This document shows, one piece after another, positions 46,493 to 62,721 of a stretch of 64,000 nucleotides of DNA (position 1 is its first letter; the number at the start of each line of letters is the position of its first letter). A program made the translations under genes and the position numbers. The notes beneath the pieces are model-generated. The model made no database searches and was not told where the DNA came from. It saw only the letters and a list, made by a program, of their open reading frames with translations. Origin of the DNA: Gammaproteobacteria bacterium (GTDB lineage Bacteria > Pseudomonadota > Gammaproteobacteria > CAJXQU01); contig CBDEGZ010000003.1 of assembly GCA_965238175.1 (NCBI GenBank), positions 864,001 through 928,000 on the forward strand. Direction: 5' to 3'.

Positions 46493-49400
46493 ATGCACCG
46501 CACATCTGCCCCAAGAACGCCACTCCCGACTTTCTTTCTCCTCAGTATTTTAATGAGTGCCAGCCAATCGGCATTTGCCGTCTGCGGCCCCTTAACCCAA
46601 GAAGCCGAAACAGGGACATTAAATGGTGATTTTGGTGTAGTCGCCGACAGCACCGCCAGCGGTGGCCAATACGTGGAAGTCCCGGCCAACAGCACCTCCA
46701 CCCAAAGCGGACTCTCCAATCACTATACCGAATATTGCTTTAATGTCACCCAAGCCGGCACCTACCGAATTGAAGGCACCGCCCGCGCATCAAACAGCTC
46801 ATACAACTCCTTCCGCGTGACCGTGAACGACAACCCAAGCAGTGGTCATGCCTGGGCCTTCAGCCACGGTAATGGCTTTGTGACCGAAGAAATAGCCGGT
46901 GGCAATGGCAGTGGCAGCCCCGAAGACTTCAGCCTAAACGCCGGTGACAACACCGTGCGCTTCTACCTGCGCGAAGACGGTGCCCAATTAGACAAAGTCC
47001 GCCTTGTCCTACAAGGTGGTAGTTCAAACAACACCGCCCCCAATGTCACCATCAGCAGCCCCAACAACGGCACCAACGTCACCCAAGGCAGCAATATAAC
47101 CTTAACCGCCACCGCCAATGACACCGAAGACGGCAGCCTAACCAACACTATCAGCTGGAGCTCAAACCACGATGGCAGCTTAGGCACCGGTGGCAGCGTG
47201 AGCCTAAGTAATTTAAGTGCAAACACCCATACGATAACCGCCAGCGTCACCGACAGTGGCGGATTGTCTGGAAACAGCACTATCAGTCTTACCGTCACCG
47301 TCACGACTACCGGTGGCAGTACCGTCACCGACATCATCGTCGACAACAGCGATAACAACACCCACACAACCGGCACCTGGTTAAACTCAAGCACAACACC
47401 AACACACGATGGAAGCAACTCTGTTTATAGCAATACCAATGGCAGCTTTCGGTGGACACCGAACATTATCACCGCCGGAGAATACACCGTCTATGCCTGG
47501 TGGACCTATTACGCAAGCCGACCTTCGGCCGCGTCCTACACCCTTCAACACAGTAGTGGCAGCAGTGTGGTGACCAAAGCCCAGAACGATCAATCACTGG
47601 GCGGACAATGGGTTGAATTAGGCACCTACACCTTCGCCGCCGGTAGTGCAGGCTATGTTGAACTCACCAGTAACACCAGCGGCAACTTCAGTGCTGATGC
47701 GATTAGATTAGTCCATAGCGGTGGTGGGAGTGAGCCGAGCGGTGGTGGCGGCAGCTGCGGCCCCTTAACCCAAGAAGCCGAAACAGGGACATTAAATGGT
47801 GATTTTGGTGTAGTCGCCGACAGCACCGCCAGCGGTGGCCAATACGTGGAAGTCCCGGCCAACAGCACCTCCACCCAAAGCGGACTCTCCAATCACTATA
47901 CCGAATATTGCTTTAATGTCACCCAAGCCGGCACCTACCGAATTGAAGGCACCGCCCGCGCATCAAACAGCTCATACAACTCCTTCCGCGTGACCGTGAA
48001 CGACAACCCAAGCAGTGGTCATGCCTGGGCCTTCAGCCACGGTAATGGCTTTGTGACCGAAGAAATAGCCGGTGGCAATGGCAGTGGCAGCCCCGAAGAC
48101 TTCAGCCTAAACGCCGGCGACAACACCGTGCGCTTCTACCTACGCGAAGACGGTGCTCAACTGGACAAAGTCCGCCTTGTCCTACAAGGTGGCGGTAACA
48201 CCGCCCCCAGTGTCACCATCAGCAACCCCAACAACGGCACCAACGTCACCCAAGGCAGCAATATAACCTTAACCGCCACCGCCAATGACACCGAAGACGG
48301 CAGCCTAACCAACACTATCAGCTGGAGCTCAAACCACGATGGCAGCTTAGGCACCGGTGGCAGCGTGAGCCTAAGTAATTTAAGTGCAAACACCCATACG
48401 ATAACCGCCAGCGTCACCGACAGTGGCGGATTGTCTGGAAACAGCACTATCAGTCTTACCGTCACCGTCACGACTACCGGTGGCAGTACCGTCACCGACA
48501 TCATCGTCGACAACAGCGATAACAACACCCACACAACCGGCACCTGGTTAAACTCAAGCACAACACCAACACACGATGGAAGCAACTCTGTTTATAGCAA
48601 TACCAATGGCAGCTTTCGGTGGACACCGAACATTATCACCGCCGGAGAATACACCGTCTATGCCTGGTGGACCTATTACGCAAGCCGACCTTCGGCCGCG
48701 TCCTACACCCTTCAACACAATGGTGGCAGCAGTGTGGTGACCAAAGCCCAGAACGATCAATCACTGGGCGGACAATGGGTTGAATTAGGCACCTACACCT
48801 TCGCCGCCGGTAGTGCAGGCTATGTTGAACTCACCAGTAACACCAGCGGTAACTTCAGTGCCGATGCAATTAAATTAGTCCATGGTGGTGGGAGTAGGCC
48901 GAGCAGTAGTAATGCTGATCCAGTAATCAGCACAATTGGTACCCAAACGGCGACGGTGGGCAGTAGCAAGACCATCAATGTGAGTGCCAGCGACAGTGAT
49001 AGTGGTGACACCTTGAGCTTTATTCTGGAGAGTGCGCCGAGTTTTGTGAGCTTGACCGACAATGGCAATCGCACCGCCACTCTCGCTGTGAGTAGCAACA
49101 GTACATCAGGTCATCACAACATTGTTGTGAGTGTACGTGATGCTAACGGTAGCAGTGACAGCGAGAGCGTTGTGTTGACAGTGAGTGGTCAAATTGCCGC
49201 AAACCTCGTTGACTGGCAAGTAGTTGGAACGAATGATTTTGATGGCGATGGCAAGTTCGACACCTTGTTACACAACTTCAGTACGGGTGAAGTTTGGATG
49301 TATCTCATGGACGCGGCTCAAGTGAGCACGAGTGCCCATGTTACCAATGTTGGCGCGAATTGGCGCGTTGCAGGAACGGGTGATTTTAATGGCGACGGCA

Positions 49401-50491: not shown

Positions 50492-50597
50492 AGGATACAC
50501 ACACAACAACCGATAAAGACAGCCGCCTCAACACATTGTGCTGAGGAAGCCTAAAGAGACACGGCACAGACGTGCCACACACGACAGGAAAATGCAG

Positions 50598-53500
50598 ATG
50601 ACACGCCAAACACAGACAGGCCTTGGAACTCACCCACGCAGAGTTAACGCTTTTGTTGCCAGCTTAATTTTCGCCTTAATGTCATTAACCACATCGGTGA
50701 TGCAAGCGGCAGTGCCGGGCCTCACCCCGGGAGAGCTGAGTGTTGGTCAGTCGGGTGCGGCAGAATACAATGTGCCGATTGCAGTGCCACCGGGCACGGC
50801 TGGCATGGCACCGATCTTATCGTTGAACTACAGCAGCAACAGCGGCAATGGGCCGCTAGGGGTCGGGTGGTCATTAAGTGGTCTATCGGCGATTACCCGC
50901 TGTCCACAGACCCTGGCACAAGATGGACAAATACGCGCAGTGAAGTTTGACACTCAGGATAAGTTTTGTCTGGATGGCCAGCGTCTAGTCGTCTCAAACG
51001 GCGGTGCCTATGGTGCCAATGGTACACAATATCGCACTGAGATGGATAACTTTAGTTTGATTACTTCGCACGGCAGTGGCTCAGGCTCACCTGTCAGTGG
51101 ACCAAACTACTTCACCGTCAAAACCAAAGCCGGTCAAACGATGTTTTACGGCACGACAACGGACTCAAACATTGACAGCCTCAACGGCGGACACGTGCGC
51201 ACCTGGGCCTTAAACCAGCTCCACGACACGGTCGGTAACTACATCAATTTCACTTATGAAGAAGATACCGACAAGCAAGATTACCGGATAGCGCGGATAG
51301 ATTACACCGGCAACGTTAATGGCAGGGGCCCCTACAGCTCGGTACGGTTTGCGTACATGCCACGGCCAAGACTGGCCAAAGGTTACATTGCAGGCCACCC
51401 CTTTGCACAACGTAAGCTGATGACAAACATCAAGACCTATGCAGGTGAGACGCAGGTGAAAGACTATCGGCTGCATTATGAGATGACCGGTGTGGTGGGG
51501 CAACCGCGCATCGAAGAAATCAAAGAGTGTGATGGTGGTGGTCAGTGTTTTAATCCGTTGACGTTTGACTGGTCGCCGGAGTTGATGGGGTATAGTGATT
51601 CGCGGAGTATTTTCCTAGTGCCGCTTAAAGAAAGCGACGGTGTACAGTGGGTCGATCATAATGGCGATGGCAACACCGATTTTTGTTATATCAACAAATA
51701 CGGTACGCCTATCTGTCATGTCTCTAATGGCACAATGCTTAATCAAACCCCCATCAGCGCCGGTTTTACCGTTAATAAAGGCTATGATGAAGGCCGTGAA
51801 TGGATCGACGTTAATGGCGATGGCAAGGCGGATTTTTGTCGCGTCGTTGGAAACTCAAGTAATCCACAGATAGCCTGTAACACATCAACTGGTAATGGGT
51901 TAAATAGCGCGTTCTCAGGTAGCCTCTCACCGGAAGGCTGGGGGCAGGGGCAGGGTCGCCGATGGGTGGATTTTAATGGTGATGGACGAGCGGATTATTG
52001 TCGAGTGACAGGATCTAACCGTGCCGCCTGTACGCTCTCAACCGGTACTGGCTTTGGTCAGACTATTATCGGCACAGGTTTAGTTTATGGAACCGGTGCG
52101 AATGGAAAAAATATCCGTGACTGGGAAGACGTCAATGGCGATGGTCTGGTGGATTTTTGTCGGACGCTGACGGATAACAGTAAGGTTTGTAACCTTTCTA
52201 CCGGTACCGGGTTTGATCCCACTCCCTATCAAACGGCAGCCCATGCAGTAAGTGGTTACTCTGGCTCCACCGCCTGGGTGGATATCAATGGCGATGGCAA
52301 TAAAGATCTCTGTGGCCTCTTCAAAGAAGGAGAAATCCAAAGCAAGACCCCCCTCGTTCCAGGCCTTTTGGAGAATCAACAATATAAATTCACCATTAGT
52401 GAAGCTCGATTTTATGCTAAGTGTAATTTGTATACCGGTACGGGTTTCGCCAACACCATTGAAAAAGAAATGTTATATGTTCCTGAGAAATCGTGTTTCA
52501 GCTATGAAGGTATTTCATGTGACATATTGCAAAGGGAACCCGAAACAAACGTTAAACTTAAGTGGAAAGACGTCAACAACGATGGGCTTGTTGATGCGTG
52601 TAGATTTGGTGCATGCGCACTCTCTAATGGCAGTGGCTTTGGGCCACTGGTGACTGGGGTAAACACACATTTTGAGAATAGCAAGACAACCGATGAGATT
52701 TTTGCCGATGTCAACGGCGATGCCATCGCCGACGCTTGTTACATTCGTTTTCGTAGTCAAAAAGACGATAATATCACTTGCAGAATCGGCAACACCCGCC
52801 CCCAGATGCGCATTATCAAAGTCACCAACAGCCTTGGTAGCCCCACCGAGATTGAATACAAACCGATGACCGACAGCAGCGTCTACAGTAAATCTGCGGA
52901 TGTGGTTCCGAAAACAACAGGCTACCCTTACCTTGACGTCCAAGCCCCGATGTACGTAGTCTCCAAGGTTAAAAATGACAATGGCCTCGGCCTCGGCATC
53001 ACCAACGACGTCGACTACACCTATGCAGGCGCCAAAGTCCACCTAAAAGGCCGTGGTTTTGCTGGTTTTCGTTGGATGTTTGCCTACAACAGAGCCCAAG
53101 GCACCTATGCGGCGACCGAGTTCCATCAAGACTTCCCACTCGCCGGCATGGTCGCCTACACACGTAGCAACCTGATTGCAGACAATAGCCTGATTAGTCA
53201 AACCAACAACACCTATAACGTTGTGGCAAGAACCGACGGCAGCTATTTTCCCTATCTTCAAACCAGTAACCAAGTCACATACGAACTCGGCGGAGCCATG
53301 GTCAAACAAACCGTTACAGACTACGTCTACGATGATTATGGTAACCCGATCTCGATTAAAGTGGCCACCGCAGGCCTCGACCAAAATACCTTCCGCACAG
53401 AAACCACCAACACCTACGACGCGTCCAGTACCGCCATCAGCAAATGGTACCTAGGCCGCTTAACCACCACCGCCGTCACGCAAACCGCCAACGGCAAGAC

Positions 53501-56500
53501 CGCAACCCGTAAATCAGCGTTTGAATACGACATCAATGGTCACGGCATGCTGATGAAAGAAATCATCGAGCCGAATAACCCCGCACTTCGATTAGAAACC
53601 GCCTATCAATACGACGCCTACGGTAACAAAACCCGCGTCACCGCCTTGGGCGGCAGCGGATCTACCGCCATCACCGCCCGCAGCACACGAACAGAATATA
53701 GCGGCGGCGGTCACAACACCGGGCAATTCCCGATCAAAATCACCAATGCGATGGGCGAATCTGAAACCCATACCTACGATGCGCGCTTTGGCGTCATGAC
53801 CAAACTCACCGGCCCCAATGGTCTGGAGACCACCTGGCAATACGATAGCTTTGGACGCAAGATAAAAGAGACACGGGCAGATAGCACGACAACCACCTTT
53901 ACTCGTAACTGGTGTGCTAAATACTGTAAGACCTCCCTGACCACCCAAAGCACTGGCAGTGCGCCTGCTCTGGAAGCCTTTGACCGACTCGGCCGAATTC
54001 AATATGTCAATACCTATGGTCTTGGAAATGATCTGTCTGGCAGCAATGTCTACACAGATCTAAATATCATTAACCCCCGCATTATCAGTGTAGCAACCCA
54101 ATACAATATTCGCGGTGAAATCAAACGAACCTCACAACCCTTCTATCTTCAGAGCCCCATTCACTGGACCAACTTCACCTACGACGCCCTCGGCCGGCCG
54201 CTAACCGAAACCGACGCCAACGGCACCACCGGTTATGAATATAAGGGACTAACATCAACCCTCACCAACCGCCTCAACCAAAAAACCACCCGGCGAGTTA
54301 ATGCGCGTGACGAATTGATCCAAACCACCGACAACCTAGGCTTCAACACCTATTACCAATATGATGCACAGGGCAACCAAACCCAAGTCACTGACCACCT
54401 CGGCAACATCACCACCATTGACTACGACGCCCGTGGTCGCAAAATCGCCATGAACGACCCCGACATGGGCGACTGGGAATACAGCTACAACGCCCTCGGA
54501 GAGCTGATAAGCCAAACCGACGCCAAAGGCCAAATCACCCGCATGGAATACGATATTCTAGGGCGCATGATCACACGCACAGACGCGGAATGTAACAGCT
54601 TCTGGGTCTATGGCTCACACAGCAACACCGGCGCAAGTGATAAGGCCATCGGCAAACTCATCTACAGCCAAAAAGGCCAGCAAGAAAAAATCTTCACTCG
54701 CTACGACAGCCTAGGCCGTCCGAATGAAATTGAAACAAGACTACAGTTTGAAGCCACCAACAAAACCTACCTCACCCAAACAAATTACGACACGCTCGGA
54801 CGAGTACAAGACATCACCTATCCGGCCAGCAACGACTACCCAACAGGCCTCGTAGTCAGAAACCACTACGACGCCAACGGCCATATGCACAAAGTCACCG
54901 GCCCCAACAACATCACCTACTGGCAAGCCACCAAACAAAATGCGCGAGGCCAGATAACCGAGTTCCGTATGGGCAATGGCGCCACCGAAACCCAACGGTC
55001 TTATAATGCAATAAACGGCCTGGTAAGCAACATCAACACCCGTAACGATAATGGAACTGACAACATTCAGAAACTTGGCTTTACCTTTGACGTCGCCGGC
55101 AACCTCAAAACCCGCCGAGGCTACGACCAAGGCAATAACACCAACCTCGAAGAAAACTTCCATTATGACGGCATCAATCGCCTCATCGTGTCACAGCTTG
55201 GCGATGGGTCACATCGAAAGCAATACGACTACGACGCGCTCGGCAACCTCACCTTCAAAACCGGGGTTGGCACCTACGACTACACCAACGGCCGTCCACA
55301 TGCGGTGAGCAACACCTCGATTGGGAGTAAACAATACCAATACGACGACAATGGCAACATGATGAGCGGTGATGGTCGAACCATCACCTGGTCACCGTAC
55401 AACAAACCGATCAAAATTGAGAAAGACGGTGTACAAACCGCCACCCAATTTGACTACGGCGCGAACCGCAACCGCATTCGGCAGGTAAATGATCAAAAAA
55501 TCATTTATTACGTCAACGGCCTGTTTGAGCAGGAATACGATGGCACCACCACCACCGACGTGCACTACATCAAAGCCGGTGGCAGCACCATTGCGATTGT
55601 TAAATCCAAAGGCACCAACGACCCACTAGAAACCCGCTACCTGCACAAAGACCACTTAGGCGGCATTGAGTCGATTACAAATGAACAAGGTAACCTAGTC
55701 CAACAGTTTAGCTATGACCCGCATGGCAAACGCCGGGCGGTTAACTGGACCGATGATGACAATGTCAGCAACCCGGCTATTTATCAATTTGACACCCAAC
55801 GTGGCTTTACCGGGCATGAACACCTGGACGAGGTGGGGCTAATTCACATGAACGGCCGAGTCTATGACCCGACGCTTGGACGGTTTATCAGTGCAGATCC
55901 GTTTGTGCAGTTCCCGGACAATGGCCAGTCATTGAACCGCTATTCGTATGTGTTGAACAATCCACTCAGTTATTCTGACCCCAGTGGGTTCTTTTTTAAG
56001 AAGTTGTTTAGGAATAAGATTTTTAGGATTGTGGCGAGTATTGCAGTTAACTTTTTACCCGGGTTTCAAGCACTTGGGCCTTTATTGAATGCTGCACTGA
56101 AAGGGTTTGCGGCAAGTTTTATAGGCAGCGGCGGTGATTTAAGATCAGGGTTTATTGGTGCAGTGACGATGGGCGCATTCCAGAAACTGGGAGGTGCCGG
56201 TGCAATTGCAGGGAAAATTGGAGGTTTTACAGGTGATGTTGTCGAGGTCGTGGCTCATGGTGTTGTTGGAGGTGTCTCTGCCATCGCCCGTGGTGGTAGG
56301 TTTATCCAGGGGTTCTTGCCTGCCGGGTTGAGTAGTGCAACGAGCTTGTCTGGTTTCTTAAGGAACTTAGATGATGTGACGCAAGGTTTTGCGCAGGCTG
56401 TTATTGGTGGAACCGCTTCTGTGTTGGGTGGCGGTAAGTTTGCTAATGGCGCGGTGACGAGTGCGTTTGTTTATGCGGCGGGGAGGGTTGGGCAGGCGAG

Positions 56501-56999
56501 AGCGGGAGCCGGTGGGGGGGCTGGGGCTGGGGGGGATGCTGGTGGGTTTGCTCGGGGGAAGAGAGCTGGTCAGGGCGTGAAATCTGCTGGAGTGGAAGTT
56601 GATAATAATCTATTATTAAGGAAACTTGGTGAGGTAAATGGGAAAGGTGATGTTCTTATTGTTGATGCAGGTACAGAAATCTTTATTGAACCATATGGCA
56701 ATAGTTTAGGTGGAGAAGGTTTTTCATATAACATCAATTACCATTATTATGACGCAGTTGGTAATATAATCCCACAAATGGCTCCTCTCAATGCCTTTGG
56801 GAGAGGAATTCCTGCATTCACCGGACAGGCATTTGTTGGTCAAAATGGAGGTGGTCCTGATTTGCCATTTAGTGCTCCAAATGTGGGGGGGAATAACTAT
56901 AACGGGAGTGTAAGATGGTCAATCTCAATACCTAGACAAGCCTCGTCACATGATGCAAGCTTGGGAGTGAATTTGAGAGTTTACGAGGTAATAAGGTGA
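50598..56999 (+). CDS. RHS/YD-repeat polymorphic toxin with signal peptide, SpvB-like N-terminus, FG-GAP propeller, RHS core and variable C-terminus
   Basis: G.LSV..SGAAEY.VPI.VPPG..GM.P.LSL.YSS..GNG.LG.GWSL (SpvB/TcB-like), YD repeats, RGFTGHE..HMNGRVYDP..GRF..DP..NRYSYV.NNP...DPSG; ATG 50598 with AGGAA RBS. Confidence 0.93.
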   Translation: MTRQTQTGLGTHPRRVNAFVASLIFALMSLTTSVMQAAVPGLTPGELSVGQSGAAEYNVPIAVPPGTAGMAPILSLNYSSNSGNGPLGVGWSLSGLSAITRCPQTLAQDGQIRAVKFDTQDKFCLDGQRLVVSNGGAYGANGTQYRTEMDNFSLITSHGSGSGSPVSGPNYFTVKTKAGQTMFYGTTTDSNIDSLNGGHVRTWALNQLHDTVGNYINFTYEEDTDKQDYRIARIDYTGNVNGRGPYSSVRFAYMPRPRLAKGYIAGHPFAQRKLMTNIKTYAGETQVKDYRLHYEMTGVVGQPRIEEIKECDGGGQCFNPLTFDWSPELMGYSDSRSIFLVPLKESDGVQWVDHNGDGNTDFCYINKYGTPICHVSNGTMLNQTPISAGFTVNKGYDEGREWIDVNGDGKADFCRVVGNSSNPQIACNTSTGNGLNSAFSGSLSPEGWGQGQGRRWVDFNGDGRADYCRVTGSNRAACTLSTGTGFGQTIIGTGLVYGTGANGKNIRDWEDVNGDGLVDFCRTLTDNSKVCNLSTGTGFDPTPYQTAAHAVSGYSGSTAWVDINGDGNKDLCGLFKEGEIQSKTPLVPGLLENQQYKFTISEARFYAKCNLYTGTGFANTIEKEMLYVPEKSCFSYEGISCDILQREPETNVKLKWKDVNNDGLVDACRFGACALSNGSGFGPLVTGVNTHFENSKTTDEIFADVNGDAIADACYIRFRSQKDDNITCRIGNTRPQMRIIKVTNSLGSPTEIEYKPMTDSSVYSKSADVVPKTTGYPYLDVQAPMYVVSKVKNDNGLGLGITNDVDYTYAGAKVHLKGRGFAGFRWMFAYNRAQGTYAATEFHQDFPLAGMVAYTRSNLIADNSLISQTNNTYNVVARTDGSYFPYLQTSNQVTYELGGAMVKQTVTDYVYDDYGNPISIKVATAGLDQNTFRTETTNTYDASSTAISKWYLGRLTTTAVTQTANGKTATRKSAFEYDINGHGMLMKEIIEPNNPALRLETAYQYDAYGNKTRVTALGGSGSTAITARSTRTEYSGGGHNTGQFPIKITNAMGESETHTYDARFGVMTKLTGPNGLETTWQYDSFGRKIKETRADSTTTTFTRNWCAKYCKTSLTTQSTGSAPALEAFDRLGRIQYVNTYGLGNDLSGSNVYTDLNIINPRIISVATQYNIRGEIKRTSQPFYLQSPIHWTNFTYDALGRPLTETDANGTTGYEYKGLTSTLTNRLNQKTTRRVNARDELIQTTDNLGFNTYYQYDAQGNQTQVTDHLGNITTIDYDARGRKIAMNDPDMGDWEYSYNALGELISQTDAKGQITRMEYDILGRMITRTDAECNSFWVYGSHSNTGASDKAIGKLIYSQKGQQEKIFTRYDSLGRPNEIETRLQFEATNKTYLTQTNYDTLGRVQDITYPASNDYPTGLVVRNHYDANGHMHKVTGPNNITYWQATKQNARGQITEFRMGNGATETQRSYNAINGLVSNINTRNDNGTDNIQKLGFTFDVAGNLKTRRGYDQGNNTNLEENFHYDGINRLIVSQLGDGSHRKQYDYDALGNLTFKTGVGTYDYTNGRPHAVSNTSIGSKQYQYDDNGNMMSGDGRTITWSPYNKPIKIEKDGVQTATQFDYGANRNRIRQVNDQKIIYYVNGLFEQEYDGTTTTDVHYIKAGGSTIAIVKSKGTNDPLETRYLHKDHLGGIESITNEQGNLVQQFSYDPHGKRRAVNWTDDDNVSNPAIYQFDTQRGFTGHEHLDEVGLIHMNGRVYDPTLGRFISADPFVQFPDNGQSLNRYSYVLNNPLSYSDPSGFFFKKLFRNKIFRIVASIAVNFLPGFQALGPLLNAALKGFAASFIGSGGDLRSGFIGAVTMGAFQKLGGAGAIAGKIGGFTGDVVEVVAHGVVGGVSAIARGGRFIQGFLPAGLSSATSLSGFLRNLDDVTQGFAQAVIGGTASVLGGGKFANGAVTSAFVYAAGRVGQARAGAGGGAGAGGDAGGFARGKRAGQGVKSAGVEVDNNLLLRKLGEVNGKGDVLIVDAGTEIFIEPYGNSLGGEGFSYNINYHYYDAVGNIIPQMAPLNAFGRGIPAFTGQAFVGQNGGGPDLPFSAPNVGGNNYNGSVRWSISIPRQASSHDASLGVNLRVYEVIR

Positions 57000-57439
57000 A
57001 AAATCTAAATATTGGCACTTTATCATTTTGGGTTGTTATTTTATTAATCACAGGTTGTAGTAAACAGCAGGAAAATAAGGAGCCCAGAAATCTGACATAT
57101 GGAAAGTATTCGTTGCAAGAATGTGTTGTGCAAGTAAATCTAAATTGGGAGGATGATATTGGGAGTGCTGAGAAGTATGAAGCAATTAAGAATATAGGGC
57201 ATCAAATAGTTTTAGCAATGAATTCTAGAGAATTTCCATTATTTGGTTCAAATACAACTCGCTCTATGAATTACTATCTTTTCTACTACGCTGATAAGTG
57301 CGAAAAAAGAGAAAGGTATACTGAGAGTATAATTAATGATTTTATACTTAATAAAGTAACTAATTTTCCTCCGTATAAAATTCTAACTAAACCTATTAAG
57401 TTTGAAAATGGTGCAGAACCAAGAGGTTGGTGGAAATAA
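56996..57439 (+). CDS. Putative immunity lipoprotein for RHS tip 1
   Basis: GTGA overlap with the toxin stop, AT-rich, lipobox LITG-C. Confidence 0.75.
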   Translation: MKNLNIGTLSFWVVILLITGCSKQQENKEPRNLTYGKYSLQECVVQVNLNWEDDIGSAEKYEAIKNIGHQIVLAMNSREFPLFGSNTTRSMNYYLFYYADKCEKRERYTESIINDFILNKVTNFPPYKILTKPIKFENGAEPRGWWK

Positions 57440-57562
57440 AATCAAGGGGTCAGCCAGCTTGATTATCTCGATAAGCCTTACTTTTCCTATCTCCACCGTG
57501 CGAGGTTAATTTTGTCGGTCTCGATAATTTTGCAGCCATTTGTGTATGAAAACCCGCCTTAC
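57438..57562 (-). repeat. Inverted 125-bp copy of the Y1 transposase 3' end and right TIR
   Basis: Reverse complement of 61845-61969 with 3 mismatches. Confidence 0.93.
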
Positions 57563-57582
57563 TGAATTAAATAGGGTCAGAC

Positions 57583-57708
57583 TAAGGTAGCCCAGGTATT
57601 CCGGACACTTCAAAAGAGAGACAATACTTTTAGAGGTGAGCCATGTCAAAACGTCAAAGTTATACCCGAGAATTCAAGTTAGAGGCCGTGCGACTGCTTG
57701 AGCAGAAA
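57583..57708 (+). pseudogene. IS3-family (IS600-like) left end with truncated orfA
   Basis: TAAGGTAGCCCAGGTATTCCGGACAC resembles the IS600 IRL as I recall it; ATG 57643 MSKRQSYTREFKLEAVRLLEQ. Confidence 0.75.
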
Positions 57709-57718
57709 ATAAGTGGGG

Positions 57719-57802
57719 TCAGCAACTGTCTTGAGCCAGCTGCTCATTCCAGGGTTTATCATCTCTCACCATCGCGTTAATCATGACCAATAATTTGCGC
57801 AT
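57719..57802 (-). pseudogene. IS110-family transposase C-terminal remnant
   Basis: Minus-strand MRKLLVMINAMVRDDKPWNEQLAQDSC*, typical of IS110 C-termini. Confidence 0.72.
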
Positions 57803-57835
57803 GAGAAATCAAGGGGTCAGCCAGCTTGATTATCT

Positions 57836-60685
57836 CAATACAATATTCGCGGTGAAATCAAACGAACCTCACAACCCTTCTATCTTCAGAGCCCCATTCA
57901 CTGGACCAACTTCACCTACGACGCCCTCGGCCGGCCGCTAACCGAAACCGACGCCAACGGCACCACCGGTTATGAATATAAGGGACTAACATCAACCCTC
58001 ACCAACCGCCTCAACCAAAAAACCACCCGGCGAGTTAATGCGCGTGACGAATTGATCCAAACCACCGACAACCTAGGCTTCAACACCTATTACCAATATG
58101 ATGCACAGGGCAACCAAACCCAAGTCACTGACCACCTCGGCAACATCACCACCATTGACTACGACGCCCGTGGTCGCAAAATCGCCATGAACGACCCCGA
58201 CATGGGCGACTGGGAATACAGCTACAACGCCCTCGGAGAGCTGATAAGCCAAACCGACGCCAAAGGCCAAATCACCCGCATGGAATACGATATTCTAGGG
58301 CGCATGATCACACGCACAGACGCGGAATGTAACAGCTTCTGGGTCTATGGCTCACACAGCAACACCGGCGCAAGTGATAAGGCCATCGGCAAACTCATCT
58401 ACAGCCAAAAAGGCCAGCAAGAAAAAATCTTCACTCGCTACGACAGCCTAGGCCGTCCGAATGAAATTGAAACAAGACTACAGTTTGAAGCCACCAACAA
58501 AACCTACCTCACCCAAACAAATTACGACACGCTCGGACGAGTACAAGACATCACCTATCCGGCCAGCAACGACTACCCAACAGGCCTCGTAGTCAGAAAC
58601 CACTACGACGCCAACGGCCATATGCACAAAGTCACCGGCCCCAACAACATCACCTACTGGCAAGCCACCAAACAAAATGCGCGAGGCCAGATAACCGAGT
58701 TCCGTATGGGCAATGGCGCCACCGAAACCCAACGGTCTTATAATGCAATAAACGGCCTGGTAAGCAACATCAACACCCGTAACGATAATGGAACTGACAA
58801 CATTCAGAAACTTGGCTTTACCTTTGACGTCGCCGGCAACCTCAAAACCCGCCGAGGCTACGACCAAGGCAATAACACCAACCTCGAAGAAAACTTCCAT
58901 TATGACGGCATCAATCGCCTCATCGTGTCACAGCTTGGCGATGGGTCACATCGAAAGCAATACGACTACGACGCGCTCGGCAACCTCACCTTCAAAACCG
59001 GGGTTGGCACCTACGACTACACCAACGGCCGTCCACATGCGGTGAGCAACACCTCGATTGGGAGTAAACAATACCAATACGACGACAATGGCAACATGAT
59101 GAGCGGTGATGGTCGAACCATCACCTGGTCACCGTACAACAAACCGATCAAAATTGAGAAAGACGGTGTACAAACCGCCACCCAATTTGACTACGGCGCG
59201 AACCGCAACCGTATTCGGCAGGTAAATGATCAAAAAATCATTTATTACATCAACGGCCTGTATGAACAAGAGTTTGATGGCACCACCACCACCGACGTGC
59301 ACTACATCAAAGCCGGTGGCAGCACCATTGCGATTGTTAAATCCAAAAAATCTAAAGGCACCAACGACCCACTAGAAACCCGCTACCTGCACAAAGACCA
59401 CTTAGGCGGCATTGAGTCGATTACAAATGAACAAGGTAACCTAGTCCAACAGTTTAGCTATGACCCGCATGGCAAACGCCGGGCGGTTAACTGGACCGAT
59501 GATGACAATGTCAGCAACCCGGCTATTTATCAATTTGACACCCAACGTGGCTTTACCGGGCATGAACACCTGGACGAGGTGGGGCTAATTCACATGAACG
59601 GCCGAGTCTATGACCCGACGCTTGGACGGTTTATCAGTGCAGATCCGTTTATACAAGCACCGGAAAATGGCCAGTCGTTGAATCGCTATTCGTATGTGTT
59701 GAACAATCCACTCAGTTATTCTGACCCCAGTGGGTTCTTTTTTAAGAAATTGTTTAAGAATAAGATTTTTAGGATTGTGGCTCAGGTAGTGCTTGCCTAC
59801 TTCACTGCTGGTCAGTCATTACTGTTTGAACAAGCTGTTGCCTTAGGGTTTGTGAGTGGGTTTGTATTCAGTGGCGGTGATTTTAAGGCCGGGTTTATTG
59901 GAGGGTTAACGGCCGGGGCGTTTCATGGAGTGGGGACATATTTTAAGGGGTTGGCTGGAAAAATAAGCGCTGGAACGCTCAAGGCCTTGAAGGTTGTCGC
60001 CCACGGTGTCGTGGGAGGTGTGTCTCAGGTTGCAAGCGGCGGTAAGTTTGCGGCAGGGTTCTTGTCGGCGGGAGTTACTCAGGCCGCTTCGAATATCGAA
60101 GGTTTGTTTACTGAGGGGGAAGGTATTACACTCGGCAATACGGTGAAAGCGGCGGTCATTGGTGGGACAGCGTCGGTGATTGGTGGGGGTAAGTTTGCAA
60201 ATGGGGCCATTACGGGGGCGTTTTCTAGGTTGTTTAATGATGATGCGGCAGGTCATAGTGGGGAAATAAAGAAAAGTGTTTTCTCAACAGAAGCATCATG
60301 TACTGTTCCTAGCCAATGCGAGCGTGAAAAATTCTACGGTAGGGAGCGAGTAAATAGATACGAAACATTACCGATGTTGACGTCACCATCAAGACCTGGA
60401 AAACCTACTATTATTGATGGCATTGTCTTGGCGATAGATGGAGTCACTCAATCATTTAGTTCTCATTATATAGATACAGTAAAGGTGACTTATACAGAAC
60501 GTCTATATGATGTAACAGAAACACAGTGGGCAGACGGTGGTGAACTAATCGGTCAAAGGACTTATCAGTCATGGTTTCCTGGAGAACGTGTTGGAGATGG
60601 TTTTACACGAAACGTGATTAATAGTGAATGGCAAGGTCTTGTTCATTCCAGTGACAGAAGGAATAAATATAATGTTGATAATTAA
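57836..60685 (+). pseudogene. Orphan 5'-truncated RHS module with an alternative C-terminal toxin tip
   Basis: Frame open from the duplication start (in-frame TGA at 57827); lacks signal, SpvB and propeller parts; diverges from RHS1 after IFRIVA. Confidence 0.88.
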
Positions 60686-60689
60686 GCAT

Positions 60690-61148
60690 ATGAAAAAATT
60701 AAATATTTATATTACTATTTTTAGTTTTATAGTCATTGTAATCGCTGGTTGTGATGGCTCTTCAATAGAAGATAATGAAAGTTTCAAATTTATAGTATTA
60801 AAAGAATGTGAAGAACATGTCATAAGCTATCTATCATCTATATCTGAGGATATGGGGTTATCAGTTGAATATTTTCCTTTTGATTTCCAAGTTCCCTCAC
60901 ACTCAGAGGTTGTAGGGTATATTGAATTATCCAGTAAATATGAAGGAAAAGAAGAACTAGAAACATATGCAAATGCAGTATGGTTAGATTGTTATCCTAC
61001 GGCTACTGAGCGAATTTCTAGGGGTAATCCTGATTATCCCTCTGAGGTTTTTAGGTCTGTTGAATTAGGTGAAAAATTTGGTGATAAGTCTCGTTATTTT
61101 CAGGTGGGTAAAGATGAGGTTATTATTCATTTTAGACAGAATAAATGA
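60690..61148 (+). CDS. Putative immunity lipoprotein for RHS tip 2
   Basis: ATG 4 nt after the orphan stop, AT-rich, MKKLNIYITIFSFIVIVIAG-C lipobox. Confidence 0.75.
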   Translation: MKKLNIYITIFSFIVIVIAGCDGSSIEDNESFKFIVLKECEEHVISYLSSISEDMGLSVEYFPFDFQVPSHSEVVGYIELSSKYEGKEELETYANAVWLDCYPTATERISRGNPDYPSEVFRSVELGEKFGDKSRYFQVGKDEVIIHFRQNK

Positions 61149-61190: not shown

Positions 61191-61969
61191 AAAACCAAGG
61201 GGTCAGCCATCTTGATATTTCACTTTGAAGCAAGTAATCTACCCAAATGGCGCGCCTACCAAGAATAGTTATCCCAGACCAAGCACTGCATATCATGCAC
61301 AGAGGCAATAATCGTCAAGTCATCTTTGAAACAGAAGAAGATTTTATAAGGCTTAAGGATGATATTAACCACACCTTATTAAAAGCAGACTGTCAGCTTC
61401 ATGCCTATGTGATAATGAATAACCACCTACACTTACTACTTACACCCAAAGATAAAGAGCAGCTCAAAGTCTTTATGCAATCGTTGAGTAATCGCTATGT
61501 GCGTTACTTCAATGCTGTACGAAAACGAACCGGCACTCTTTGGGAAGGACGCTATAAATCTTGCTTAATCGACAGTGACAACTACCTGTTCACGCTCTAT
61601 AAATACATCGAAATGAACCCGGTGAAAGCCAATATTGTTGATAACTTAGAAGCCTATCGATGGTCGAGTTATCACCACAATGCGTTAGGAAAGAAAGACA
61701 AGCTCATCGCTACCCATCCACTCTATAAGAAATTAGGAAAGACATTTGATCAACAAACAGCTGCCTACAAGGCTTTGTTTGAAGGGTTAGACCTATCGCA
61801 AGATGTTGACATTACCCAAGCGACTCAAAAGGGTGAGGTTTTTGGTAAGGCGGGTTTTCATACACAAATGGCTGCAAAATTATCGAGACCGACAAAATTA
61901 ACCTCGCACGGTGGAGATAGGAAAAGTGAGGCTTATCGAGATAATCATGCTGGCTGACCCCTTGGTTTT
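61191..61969 (+). mobile_element. TIR-bounded HUH Y1 transposase element (RAYT/TIRYT-like), 779 bp
   Basis: 26-bp inverted repeats with 19 bp perfect (AAAACCAAGGGGTCAGCCA) at 61191-61216 and 61944-61969; no target duplication seen. Confidence 0.85.
61247..61957 (+). CDS. REP-associated-type tyrosine (HUH Y1) transposase
   Basis: MARLPR, HIMHRGNNRQVIF, MNNHLHLL (HUH), GTLWEGRYKS, YIEMNPVKA (catalytic Tyr), YRWSSY. Confidence 0.93.
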   Translation: MARLPRIVIPDQALHIMHRGNNRQVIFETEEDFIRLKDDINHTLLKADCQLHAYVIMNNHLHLLLTPKDKEQLKVFMQSLSNRYVRYFNAVRKRTGTLWEGRYKSCLIDSDNYLFTLYKYIEMNPVKANIVDNLEAYRWSSYHHNALGKKDKLIATHPLYKKLGKTFDQQTAAYKALFEGLDLSQDVDITQATQKGEVFGKAGFHTQMAAKLSRPTKLTSHGGDRKSEAYRDNHAG

Positions 61970-62285: not shown

Positions 62286-62411
62286 AATGGCAAAAGAAAT
62301 AAGTGGGCGGCTTCAACTCCAAAGCGCGCCACTAGCCGTGATTAAAAAGACATGACTTTCCGTCTTGCTAGAATGAGATTGTCGAGATCTTATTCTATTG
62401 GAGAAAAAGCC

Positions 62412-62644
62412 ATGCCTTATCATCATTTTAGCGCAAAAGAACGTCACACCTTAATGTATTTATTGTACTGGGGATTAAGCTATCGAGACATTGGACGACG
62501 CCTCAATCGTCACCACAGTACCATTGCCCGAGAAGTCACACGCAATGGTCGCCTACGAAACTTATCTTACTGTAACGAATTTGCTGATAGACAAGCCTGT
62601 CTTCGTAAGACACAGGCTCGCCATTATCGAAAACGTGGGCCGAG
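62412..62644 (+). pseudogene. IS30-family transposase N-terminal remnant
   Basis: MPYHHFSAKER..SYRDIGRRLNRHHSTIAREVTRN HTH; truncated at the mini-element; IS left end probably near 62306. Confidence 0.85.
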
Positions 62645-62721
62645 CAGGGTCAGGCCTTACATTTCACATAAAATAGAAACATAGAAGCTGTAGAAAATGT
62701 CAATTGTAAGGCCTGACCCTG
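62645..62721. repeat. 77-bp non-autonomous mini-element with GGGTCAG-core inverted repeats
   Basis: Perfect 17-bp IR CAGGGTCAGGCCTTACA / TGTAAGGCCTGACCCTG, extendable to 25 bp with 2 mismatches. Confidence 0.85.

Follow-up and report, generated by a model that had tools for sequence, protein, structure and literature searches.

How did a truncated rhs gene come to begin at the exact border of a fragment of a transposon end, and is the transposon family concerned connected to Rhs modules more widely? The locus that raises this question lies in a 64,000-nt stretch of a gammaproteobacterial genome (the window), to which all coordinates refer unless a contig is named. In the window is an rhs gene of full length (50538..56999, plus strand) that encodes 2153 aa, identified as an ORF with SpvB (66.6 bits), FG-GAP (FG-GAP_3, 49 bits), and RHS repeats (RHS_repeat, 106 bits) by Pfam. 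Its core ends near 56035 and is followed by a variable C-terminal part, CT1. Next comes imm1 (56996..57439, plus strand), a 147-aa ORF whose position after CT1 makes it a candidate immunity gene, and which matched no Pfam or NCBIfam family. Farther downstream is a second, shorter rhs (57836..60685, plus strand) consisting of a core fragment (57836-59781) and a different C-terminal part, CT2. It is followed by imm2 (60690..61148, plus strand), a 152-aa immunity candidate that also matched no Pfam or NCBIfam family and had relatives in 0/399 other genomes, so that it offers no second context for comparing cassette mobility.

Sequence comparison matched the core fragment of the shorter gene to positions 54099..56035 (plus strand) of the main rhs with 98.6% identity over 1946 nt. 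The first 1300 nt are 100% identical and the following 100 nt contain one mismatch, while past the shared core ungapped identity drops to 19-44%. Cores this similar make recombination between the two genes possible. The shorter gene carries the Rhs core-end domain TIGR03696 (70.6 bits), its first start codon is the TTG at position 58052, upstream of which the hairpin unit described below contains an in-frame stop. With a 5'-truncated, start-less core fragment and an unlike C-terminal part, 57836..60685 can be classed from its sequence as an orphan module. The layout is that of known Rhs orphan modules, in which a full-length rhs precedes a start-less core fragment that has a C-terminal part unlike the main gene's and is accompanied by a small ORF of its own. 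We know of no description of such modules in which the orphan's 5' border is tied to a particular transposon end; the modules themselves, and C-terminal displacement, were reportedly described by Jackson et al. 2009, Poole et al. 2011, and Koskiniemi et al. 2014.

Directly upstream of the orphan is the 31-mer AAATCAAGGGGTCAGCCAGCTTGATTATCTC, which occurs without mismatches at 57439-57469 and 57806-57836 and with 2 mismatches on the minus strand at 61938-61968, against a chance expectation for such a repeat of 0.00. It corresponds, in inverted orientation, to the outermost 31 nt at the right end of a Y1 transposon located at 61191-61969. The copy beside the orphan (57806..57836, with no strand assigned) is a solo hairpin unit with the stem AATCAAG/CTTGATT, its tip at 57806, and its inner border at 57835/57836. 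Folded as DNA, the unit reached -5.7 kcal/mol (z -3.3), and 0/200 shuffles folded equally well. Homology to the main rhs sets in at 57836, equivalent to 54099, overlapping the 31-mer by 1 nt; as the preceding base differs between the partners, the sole shared base is the C at 57836. A first-pass annotation had reported the same 31 nt at both places, with the second copy fused to rhs across 1 shared nucleotide in a non-homologous junction, and these statements proved exact.

The same annotation described the joining as anchored at the terminal inverted repeat. The joint does coincide with a point of the transposon end that is defined by structure, but rhs adjoins the unit's inner side, at 5-7 nt beyond the hairpin stem, and not the tip, which faces a fragment of an IS110 transposase gene. 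The start of the orphan is thus not the outer end of the element, and simple end-anchored insertion does not describe it. The acceptor site in rhs (..AGCAAC(C)^CAATAC) is also unlike the break sites of the element (TATCT^ / TATTT^), which leaves a second enzymatic cut within rhs unsupported.

A misassembly that joined the copies of the 31-nt repeat and the 1.9-kb repeat could produce such a joint, given that it is flanked by these two repeats and that no contig spans the whole stretch, Logan contigs being interrupted at repeats. Against this, a 60-nt unitig of run X4 over 57806-57865 contains all 31-mers across the joint, and the neighboring unitigs on both sides stop exactly at 57835/57836, as a true branch point predicts. 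The genome is assembled in 3 contigs, one of which is 3.33 Mb. We consider an artefact very improbable. As to the check by spanning reads that had been suggested earlier, the unitig crosses the joint with 30 nt per side, one short of the bridging rule, and runs X3 and X4 are a single sample and possibly the source of the assembly. The junction was not found in 40 relatives, with same-genus genomes matching only the IS110 or rhs core-end pieces, and its 31-mer had 0 matches in metagenome_contigs.

The transposon from which the unit derives is present intact as copy B (61191..61969, plus strand), which begins 43 nt past the imm2 stop. Its left (61191-61216) and right (61944-61969) ends are 26-nt inverted repeats with 92% complementarity. 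They enclose an ORF (61247-61957) for a transposase of 236 aa that contains HLH at aa 60-62 and matches Pfam PF01797 (Y1_Tnp) at aa 13-123 with 51.3 bits (cut-off 23). Tyr 118 and Tyr 120, in LYKYIEMNP downstream of the HUH motif, are candidates for the catalytic Tyr. On these predicted features, the stretch 61191-61969 represents a transposon of the Y1/HUH type, RAYT-like and bounded by inverted hairpins. A copy at C3:631058-631833 is 99.9% identical to copy B, and identities among the copies in this genome are 99.9% and 99.3%. In all, the genome has 2 intact copies (A and B), 1 deleted copy (C), and fragments, giving about 9-10 units in 3.35 Mb; the possibility that the junction involves merely one of hundreds of REPs was rejected because the unit is low-copy in this genome. 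Solo units are located at 57439, 57806, and C3:630771, and doublets were found in genomes G005 and G125. In about 35 related loci, one and the same hairpin unit is found at both element ends. Both intact copies, A and B, have ends that fold poorly, so that the present Y1 copy may no longer be active. Neither a target duplication (flanking direct repeat) at copies A, B, and C nor a shared target motif flanking these copies and the solo units was seen. Inverted element ends (57806-57840 and 61934-61968, 91% over 35 nt) flank cargo in the window, as in a composite transposon; searches using imm2, the junction 31-mer, and the 40 relatives found no second place or genome with the same bounded unit.

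This element combines traits of two known classes. IS200/IS605 elements (e.g., IS608 and ISDra2) encode a Y1 HUH transposase, have sub-terminal single-strand hairpins, and are cut at a fixed short distance from them; by definition they lack terminal inverted repeats, and their left and right hairpins differ. The element in the window likewise encodes a Y1 HUH transposase and exists in several near-identical copies, the three in this genome being without target duplication. Unlike IS200/IS605, its ends are inverted repeats of one hairpin rather than two different hairpins on one strand, and the putative break is on the end's inner side. A further source on the IS200/IS605 family is bioRxiv 10.1101/279083. 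In REPtrons, RAYT genes lie between inverted REP/REPIN hairpins, as set out in portions of Nunvar 2010 (PMC2817692), Bertels & Rainey 2011 (PMC3116915), and Bertels 2017 (PMC5581495). Compared with those portions, the present family shares a Y1/HUH gene between inverted short hairpins and the dispersal of solo units and doublets. It differs in having about 9-10 units rather than tens to hundreds, in having more than a single gene copy, and in scoring 73.5 bits against NCBIfam NF047646 (the RAYT equivalog), below the cut-off of 80. Moreover, the near-identity of its gene copies (99.9%) shows mobility of the entire element in the manner of an insertion sequence, unlike the REPtrons of these excerpts. 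The excerpts contain no link to Rhs modules.

Within this genome, all Y1 copies adjoin Rhs DNA. Copy A lies behind an Rhs fragment that is itself downstream of rhs2-imm, copy B lies behind imm2, and copy C meets, at its left tip, an rhs fragment of 3139 nt with 99.87% identity to the main gene. Viewed from the Rhs side, a gene or fragment of the Y1 family is found ≤ 2 kb downstream of 4/5 module ends. Across an even sample of the class, the family was found in 131/400 genomes, usually at 1-3 gene copies per genome. Rhs was present at 8/60 sampled Y1 loci, and in all eight (8/8) the Y1 gene lay 0.8-2.2 kb downstream of the core end, in the same orientation. Only 0.74 of 60 loci were expected by chance (P about 1e-6), with the qualification that kin genomes in these counts are not independent. 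An IS3 control from the same draw gave 1/60 loci with Rhs (Fisher two-sided P 0.03). When Rhs arrays were chosen regardless of Y1, 5/20 contained Y1 genes or units.

The other 52/60 sampled Y1 loci were unrelated to Rhs. The closest relatives of the transposase (60-72% identity) had Rhs at about 1 in 35 loci (L033). Among 128 metagenome loci with the exact 23-nt hairpin, 42 had a Y1 gene and only 1 had Rhs (L187), although metagenome contigs average 2 kb, so that 1/128 is weak evidence against generality in the sub-clade. A general rule that toxin-immunity genes precede Y1 genes beyond Rhs did not emerge from a scan of 103 upstream ORFs, which were a mixture of genes with housekeeping functions, transposases, three toxin-antitoxin pairs, and many that matched no family. 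The strong enrichment of Y1 genes directly behind Rhs modules partly supports the earlier linking of the transposase to Rhs module formation, and we conclude that the link between this transposon family and Rhs modules is real. A full-text search outside subscription journals found no literature linking RAYT, IS200, or REP with Rhs orphans. Two features distinguish the present case from the orphan modules familiar to us, namely an orphan border formed by a defined Y1 hairpin unit and a Y1 family that closes Rhs modules in many genomes.

The region between imm1 and the orphan (57438-57805) is composed of nested debris. It opens with a Y1 right-end remnant (57438..57562, minus strand), the inverted terminal 125 nt of the element, whose tip at 57438 is overlapped by the imm1 stop codon. 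The remnant is 98% complementary to 61845-61969 and holds the final 38 transposase codons (tblastn 92% over aa 199-236). It is interrupted by the left end and orfA start (ATG 57644) of an IS3-family element (57563..57704, plus strand), which is itself interrupted; 57575-57704 has 97.7% identity to C3:2070709-2070838, where a full copy includes HTH_Tnp_1 and rve ORFs. The last piece is the 3' fragment of an IS110-family transposase gene (57707..57805, minus strand), comprising the last ~30 codons and the element end ..GTTGCTGACCCC, with the gene cut internally at 57805. This fragment is 88-90% identical to loci in genome G002, in which the ORF L085:592-1584 has DEDD_Tnp_IS110 and Transposase_20 domains.

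The junction break recurs elsewhere in this genome. Counting from CAAGGGG, the unit at 57806-57836 is broken after 26-27 nt, a solo left-end unit (C3:630771-630800) after 25 nt where it joins a foreign SpvB-like Rhs fragment, and copy C (C3:3181881-3182317) after 25-26 nt by an internal deletion. These three independent truncations all fall within one 2-3 nt window located 5-7 nt past the hairpin stem, a pattern of just three cases that was noticed after the fact. The deletion in copy C fuses TTATCT^ to an internal GTATTT^A, a look-alike of the left end's ATATTT^C. The stems of the left-end unit (ACCAAG..CTTGAT) and of copy C's right end (ATCAAG..CATGAT) are weakened, yet the position of the break is unchanged.

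A 31-nt scrap of Y1 might have come to rest by coincidence beside an orphan formed earlier through classical C-terminal displacement. Fragments of IS3, IS110, IS4-like elements, and several Y1 paralogues are nested around the Rhs loci of this genome, and 5/60 IS3 control loci were also near a Y1 gene, which indicates that insertion sequences cluster. We nonetheless regard coincidence as improbable: three break points lie ≤ 2-3 nt apart, both borders of the scrap are the exact borders of the conserved unit, and the cross-genome enrichment and geometry argue against chance.

The data show the anatomy of the locus, the repeated break point, and, across the family, a place for Y1 behind Rhs modules. 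The explanation that we favor is that the Y1 nuclease cut at the foot of the hairpin and the end was then joined to rhs, leaving the junction as a scar. We give this origin a little less than an even chance. Transposons of this RAYT-like Y1 kind habitually occupy the place right behind Rhs toxin-immunity cassettes; one copy stands behind imm1, now reduced to the 125-nt remnant under IS3 and IS110 debris, and another behind imm2. Arrival of a CT1-imm1 cassette at the head of the locus would have stranded the older C-terminus downstream as a start-less orphan. The nuclease would act on single-stranded DNA at the usual cleavage site next to the hairpin, breaking the strand reading GGGGTCAG at 5-7 nt 3' of the stem. 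The free end would then join rhs at the position equivalent to 54099 through 1 nt of microhomology, with the intervening DNA deleted. Catalysis of the strand transfer by Y1, the maker of the cut, and the sequence of events are inferred from the features above.

The breaks, which fall at the foot of a stem that is 7 bp long and stable, may also have arisen without any enzyme, when replication stalled at a hairpin or cruciform resumed through illegitimate slippage or template switching and left a deletion that ended there. The Y1 element would then be present merely because the DNA behind immunity genes tolerates insertions. The microhomology of 1 nt, the dissimilarity of the rhs acceptor to the element's own sites, and the crowding of the region with nested IS debris are all in keeping with such a deletion, which we judge unlikely but deserving of weight. 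It does not readily account for identical break positions at weakened stems or for the union of two similar T-rich sites in copy C, and mere tolerance of insertions is at odds with Y1 genes being co-oriented and closely spaced behind Rhs in 8/8 loci when IS3 was found with Rhs in 1/60.

If Y1 cutting made the window's orphan, the 5' ends of orphans in other genomes might also carry Y1 ends, as the first-pass annotation had suggested examining. The sequence of the local Y1 end varies from genome to genome. A copy of it was found at the start of 3/4 orphans in G005, adjoining 2/2 orphans at the Rhodanobacter locus L058, and adjoining the 1 orphan examined at G125:C15. No unit was present at the 5' border of orphans near Y1 genes in L047, L101, L107, L126, and L142, and the short orphans of L101, L107, L126, and L142 had no 10-mer in common with the local ends save one chance match. 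In G070, units were about 130 nt upstream of two orphans. The tally is 7 orphans that abut a unit, 5 without a border unit, and 2 (G070) with units about 130 nt upstream, meaning that the expectation held in some genomes and failed in others. Furthermore, rhs in G005, L058, and G125 meets the tip of the unit, unlike the inner-side join in the window. These tip-side junctions need another route and are not replicas of the window junction.

One such route treats the unit as a complete, REP-like solo unit rather than a truncated end, which serves as portable 3' homology while the rhs core serves as 5' homology. The unit would land in an rhs core, and a core-CT1-imm1-unit cassette would later enter through two homologous crossovers, in core and unit, so that the former 3' portion would remain behind the unit as an orphan. 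Solo units and REPIN doublets of the Y1 family do exist without an adjoining transposase, the two window 31-mers are identical to one another and 2 nt different from the resident intact copy, and Y1 copies A and B (99.9%) are closer than their adjoining rhs cores (95-97%). This route also accounts for the tip-to-rhs junctions of G005, L058, and G125 without odd chemistry. We consider it unlikely for the window, where it calls for a single unit from imm1 to the orphan but two are present, separated by 336 nt of unrelated IS debris, and where contact on the inner side fits only if solo units are bounded there. A length of 31 nt is also near the lower limit for RecA-type exchange.

Insertion sequences at the ends of Rhs elements have precedent. 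H-rpt (ISAs1-family) habitually occupies the downstream end of E. coli Rhs elements but has a DDE transposase and no hairpin ends, whereas the element that takes up this position here is Y1 with hairpin ends. To our knowledge, H-rpt has no defined relation to orphan borders. For Xenorhabdus and Photorhabdus, IS sites and Xer-dependent recombination beside poly-immunity arrays are cited in bioRxiv 10.64898/2026.07.13.738213. As there, site-specific or transposon sequences adjoin Rhs-linked immunity arrays and are proposed drivers of exchange, although the system is Y1/REP here and Xer or IS there.

Beyond the origin of a single scar, it is doubtful, though conceivable, that RAYT-like Y1 genes and their hairpin units constitute an Rhs cassette system in which an HUH enzyme captures, strands, and moves rhs-CT/immunity cassettes. 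The units would be cassette borders, and at them single-stranded DNA would be cut and joined by the HUH enzyme whose gene is at the array's distal end. Such moves would extend to sites without a full-length rhs, including the G005 array and L101, L107, and L142, which are stand-alone islets of orphan, immunity gene, and Y1 with no full-length rhs. Integrons offer an analogy, in that their attC cassettes, which lack promoters, form arrays with hairpin sites handled as single strands by a tyrosine recombinase of another superfamily. Here promoter-less cassettes are likewise separated by hairpin sites and the enzyme gene is at one array end in G005, G235, and the window; unlike in integrons, this gene is distal and units are absent at many cassette borders.

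The non-homologous borders of orphan Rhs and polymorphic-toxin cassettes have so far been ascribed to unspecified illegitimate recombination, and the collection of orphan cassettes in arrays is likewise unexplained. With a defined hairpin and enzyme family at a border, the question of how orphan borders form becomes testable. A cassette system of the kind considered above, if true, would be integron-like in function while using another enzyme superfamily, and RAYT-like genes, whose role is debated, would gain a concrete activity in the genome. Even a passive link would supply a useful annotation rule, in which a Y1 gene of this family directly behind a small ORF points to a toxin-immunity module in about 1/8 of cases. 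Together, the adjacency of Y1 genes to Rhs modules and the hairpin-bordered orphan offer a hint as to the way in which spare toxin cassettes arise or are exchanged.

In the window (contig C3:864001-928000), a full-length rhs gene (50538-56999, + strand; 2153 aa, with SpvB, FG-GAP and RHS repeats) is followed on the same strand by imm1, a 147-aa candidate immunity ORF ending at 57439; by 398 nt of transposon debris; by an orphan rhs without a start (57836-60685); by imm2, a 152-aa candidate immunity ORF (60690-61148) having no match among 399 other genomes; and by a 779-nt Y1 element (copy B, 61191-61969) with 26-nt inverted ends and one 236-aa ORF. A 125-nt right-end remnant opens the debris with the first copy of the element's 31-nt hairpin unit, on the imm1 stop codon. 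In this nested debris, the left end of an IS3 interrupts the Y1 remnant and is itself interrupted by an IS110 fragment. Upstream of the main rhs, an ORF of 1345 aa (Golvesin_C/FG-GAP) contains a tandem 1.17-kb duplication (46582-47746 and 47755-48910, 97.6% identity), a 94% copy of which recurs near the second rhs. Beyond copy B, 332 nt (62306-62637) encode an HTH_38 (IS30-type) domain, with 99% identical repeats at four other genome sites.

The first-pass annotation had described two identical 31-nt transposase-end copies, the second fused to rhs with 1 nt of common sequence, and this observation was confirmed. The copies at 57439-57469 and 57806-57836 have zero mismatches, where none would be expected by chance, and a third with 2 mismatches is the right end of copy B itself. 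Homology of the orphan to the main rhs begins at 57836, equivalent to 54099; the initial 1300 nt are 100% identical, the following 100 nt contain 1 mismatch, and identity across 1946 nt is 98.6%. The partners overlap by a single C at 57836. A solo unit serving as downstream homology in cassette exchange is an unlikely origin of the joint. That the orphan begins at a transposase end held, with one important correction: the adjoining unit is the terminal 31 nt of the right end, inverted, its inner border meets rhs, and its tip (57806) points leftward. What lies there is the closing portion of a minus-strand IS110-family transposase gene, broken internally.

Short-read unitigs from two sequencing runs on a single sample, which may be the assembly source, tile the junction region and end at 57835/57836, as expected where a repeat is common to two paths. 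In run X4, a 60-nt unitig (57806-57865) comprises all joint-spanning 31-mers and crosses the joint with 30 nt per side. These flanks are one nucleotide short of the bridging rule applied. Mis-assembly seems very improbable.

The 236-aa ORF matched Pfam Y1_Tnp at 51.3 bits (cut-off 23) and carries an HLH motif at aa 60-62. The element has the Y1 profile and REPtron layout, but its 73.5 bits against the NCBI RAYT equivalog model fall just below the cut-off of 80, and it departs from the RAYT/REPtron habit of a single gene with many REPs. It also breaks the IS200/IS605 rule of unlike left and right ends. The unit, ATCAAGGGGTCAGCCAGCTTGAT, lies at both ends of Y1 genes at ~35 loci of other bacteria, encoding proteins with 60-72% identity; conservation stops a few bases beyond the stem. 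Folding of the solo unit gives a stem of 7 bp (AATCAAG/CTTGATT; -5.7 kcal/mol, z -3.3). Two copies in the genome are intact and 99.9% identical; besides these there are an internally deleted copy, a diverged fragment, and three ends that are solo or truncated. In the intact copies, base changes at the ends (61191-61222 and 61938-61969 in copy B) weaken the stem to -1.9 and -1.2 kcal/mol, no better than shuffles; both copies may thus be crippled, while solo units retain the canonical stem. Partial tandem copies of the unit's first 11-17 nt (ATCAAGGGGTC plus 2-5 nt) are frequent at element tips (e.g., loci L009, L014, L022, L034, L036 and L074, and C3:631834-631850 on the contig under study), suggestive of element insertion into the loop of a pre-existing unit. 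Nested RAYT-like elements, with one Y1 type inside the 5' part of another type's Y1 gene, occurred in three genomes (L126 9300-9500; L158 3660-3960; C3:3182318-3182560), and another genome has four Y1-family matches inside 17 kb of one chromosome (G316:C3:901759-919090, partly covered by L144).

Counting from CAAGGGG, three independent truncations in the genome end at one place: after 25 nt in a solo left end (C3:630771-630800), after 26-27 nt in the window's unit, and after 25-26 nt in the internal deletion of copy C (C3:3181881-3182317). A fixed break 5-7 nt 3' of a hairpin, as here, matches the action of Y1/HUH enzymes of the IS200/IS605 kind. The deletion in copy C joined TTATCT^ to an internal GTATTT^A, which resembles the left end's ATATTT^C. 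The rhs acceptor, AGCAAC(C)^, is unlike the element's break sites. The strand transfer proposed by the first-pass annotation is partly supported. Tentatively, the likeliest route to the junction is that the Y1 enzyme would have cut at its usual site beside the hairpin, and that the cut end would then have been joined, untemplated, to the rhs core. Deletions can also be directed by a hairpin alone, and a hairpin-directed replication error is a lesser possibility.

Rhs DNA adjoins every Y1 copy in this genome, and a Y1-family gene or fragment lies ≤ 2 kb downstream at 4 of 5 Rhs module ends. Copy B starts 43 nt after imm2. Copy A (C3:631058-631833) sits behind a second rhs gene and its small ORF, and just ahead of it come a lone left-end unit and 257 nt of the N-terminal domain of a foreign Rhs, which shares 40% aa identity with the main gene. 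At the left tip of copy C is an internal stretch of rhs (3139 nt, matching the main gene at 99.87%), the far end of which is 10 nt from another GGGGTCAG-type repeat. A second Y1 paralogue is downstream of another orphan (C3:3184258). An inverted, REPIN-like doublet of a third repeat type, CAGGGTCAGGCCTTACA, occupies 62645-62721, with two more copies in the genome and a single unit 10 nt from where the rhs fragment ends at C3:3178740. The IS110-family 3' end always carries ..GTTGCTGACCCC, against GGGGTCAG-type repeats (57700-57722; C3:3183395-3183475; L092), and the target of IS110 appears to be hairpin repeats of Y1 families. The second rhs gene (C3 ~620400-630418; L001 1-8419) is a single open frame of ~3300 aa with two Rhs core-end domains (C3:625421-625957 and C3:629603-629980), as though one rhs had been fused in frame onto the C-terminal side of another.

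Across an even sample of the class, the Y1 family was present in 131/400 genomes and Rhs core ends in 139/400, tallies that include two unpublished genomes (G146 and G312). Among 79 loci retained from 324 transposase relatives, six had Rhs within 10 kb, with the Y1 gene downstream of the module in all six and co-oriented in four. We then considered the 60 best Y1 loci, with at most two per genome and excluding our own and unpublished genomes. Rhs occurred in 8/60, counted with one Rhs query that may miss distant Rhs, and over best matches that include non-independent kin rather than a random draw; 0.74 loci were expected by chance from Rhs counts and genome sizes (P about 1e-6). In all eight, Y1 was downstream of the core end and co-oriented, 0.8-2.2 kb off and right after the last small ORF, a geometry for which chance predicts 0.055 loci. 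An IS3 control from the same draw, whose tally includes unpublished genomes G300 and G045, gave Rhs in 1/60 loci, that one also having a Y1 gene (Fisher two-sided P 0.03). Conversely, 5 of 20 Rhs arrays chosen blind to Y1 had Y1 genes or units. Against a general rule, 52/60 sampled Y1 loci had non-Rhs neighbours, the closest transposase relatives had Rhs at L033 only, and Rhs was present at just one of the 128 metagenome loci that carry the hairpin exactly.

The junction itself was not seen in 40 relatives, and the joint 31-mer had no matches in metagenome_contigs. Local units at orphan 5' ends, a check that the first-pass annotation had proposed, were found in some genomes but not others. In G005, a genome of the same genus where the Y1 protein shares just 38% identity and the unit is unlike the window's, three of four orphans each come after a 66-nt doublet built from the local unit, with the rhs-derived frame beginning within ~15 nt; the fourth is preceded by IS110, itself preceded by the local doublet, and a Y1 gene closes the array. 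Both orphans at a Rhodanobacter locus (L058) begin ~13 nt after a local right-end copy, and one in G125 (contig C15) begins ≤ 25 nt from a 100-nt doublet. In these three cases rhs meets the unit's tip, unlike in the window, where it meets the inner side. Units lie ~130 nt upstream of two orphans in G070, and comparison with local ends found none at orphan borders in L047, L101, L107, L126 and L142. Coincidence is quite improbable as the source of the window's junction. Of the eight sampled loci with both Rhs and Y1, four are short orphans lacking a full-length rhs within 7-9 kb, one of them beside a tRNA gene. An islet at L107 (7150-10220), immediately downstream of a tRNA gene, consists of a frameshifted rhs orphan that stands alone, a small ORF and a Y1 element.

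Earlier work has established orphan Rhs modules and C-terminal displacement, REPtrons, and the guidance of IS200/IS605 chemistry by hairpins. Full-text literature searches found no paper tying RAYT, IS200 or REP to Rhs orphans. A preprint (bioRxiv 10.64898/2026.07.13.738213) cites Xer recombination and IS sites next to poly-immunity arrays. The best supported reading of our results is that a RAYT-like Y1 transposon family habitually sits right behind Rhs toxin-immunity cassettes, and that DNA breaks and rejoins at its hairpin units when cassettes become stranded orphans.
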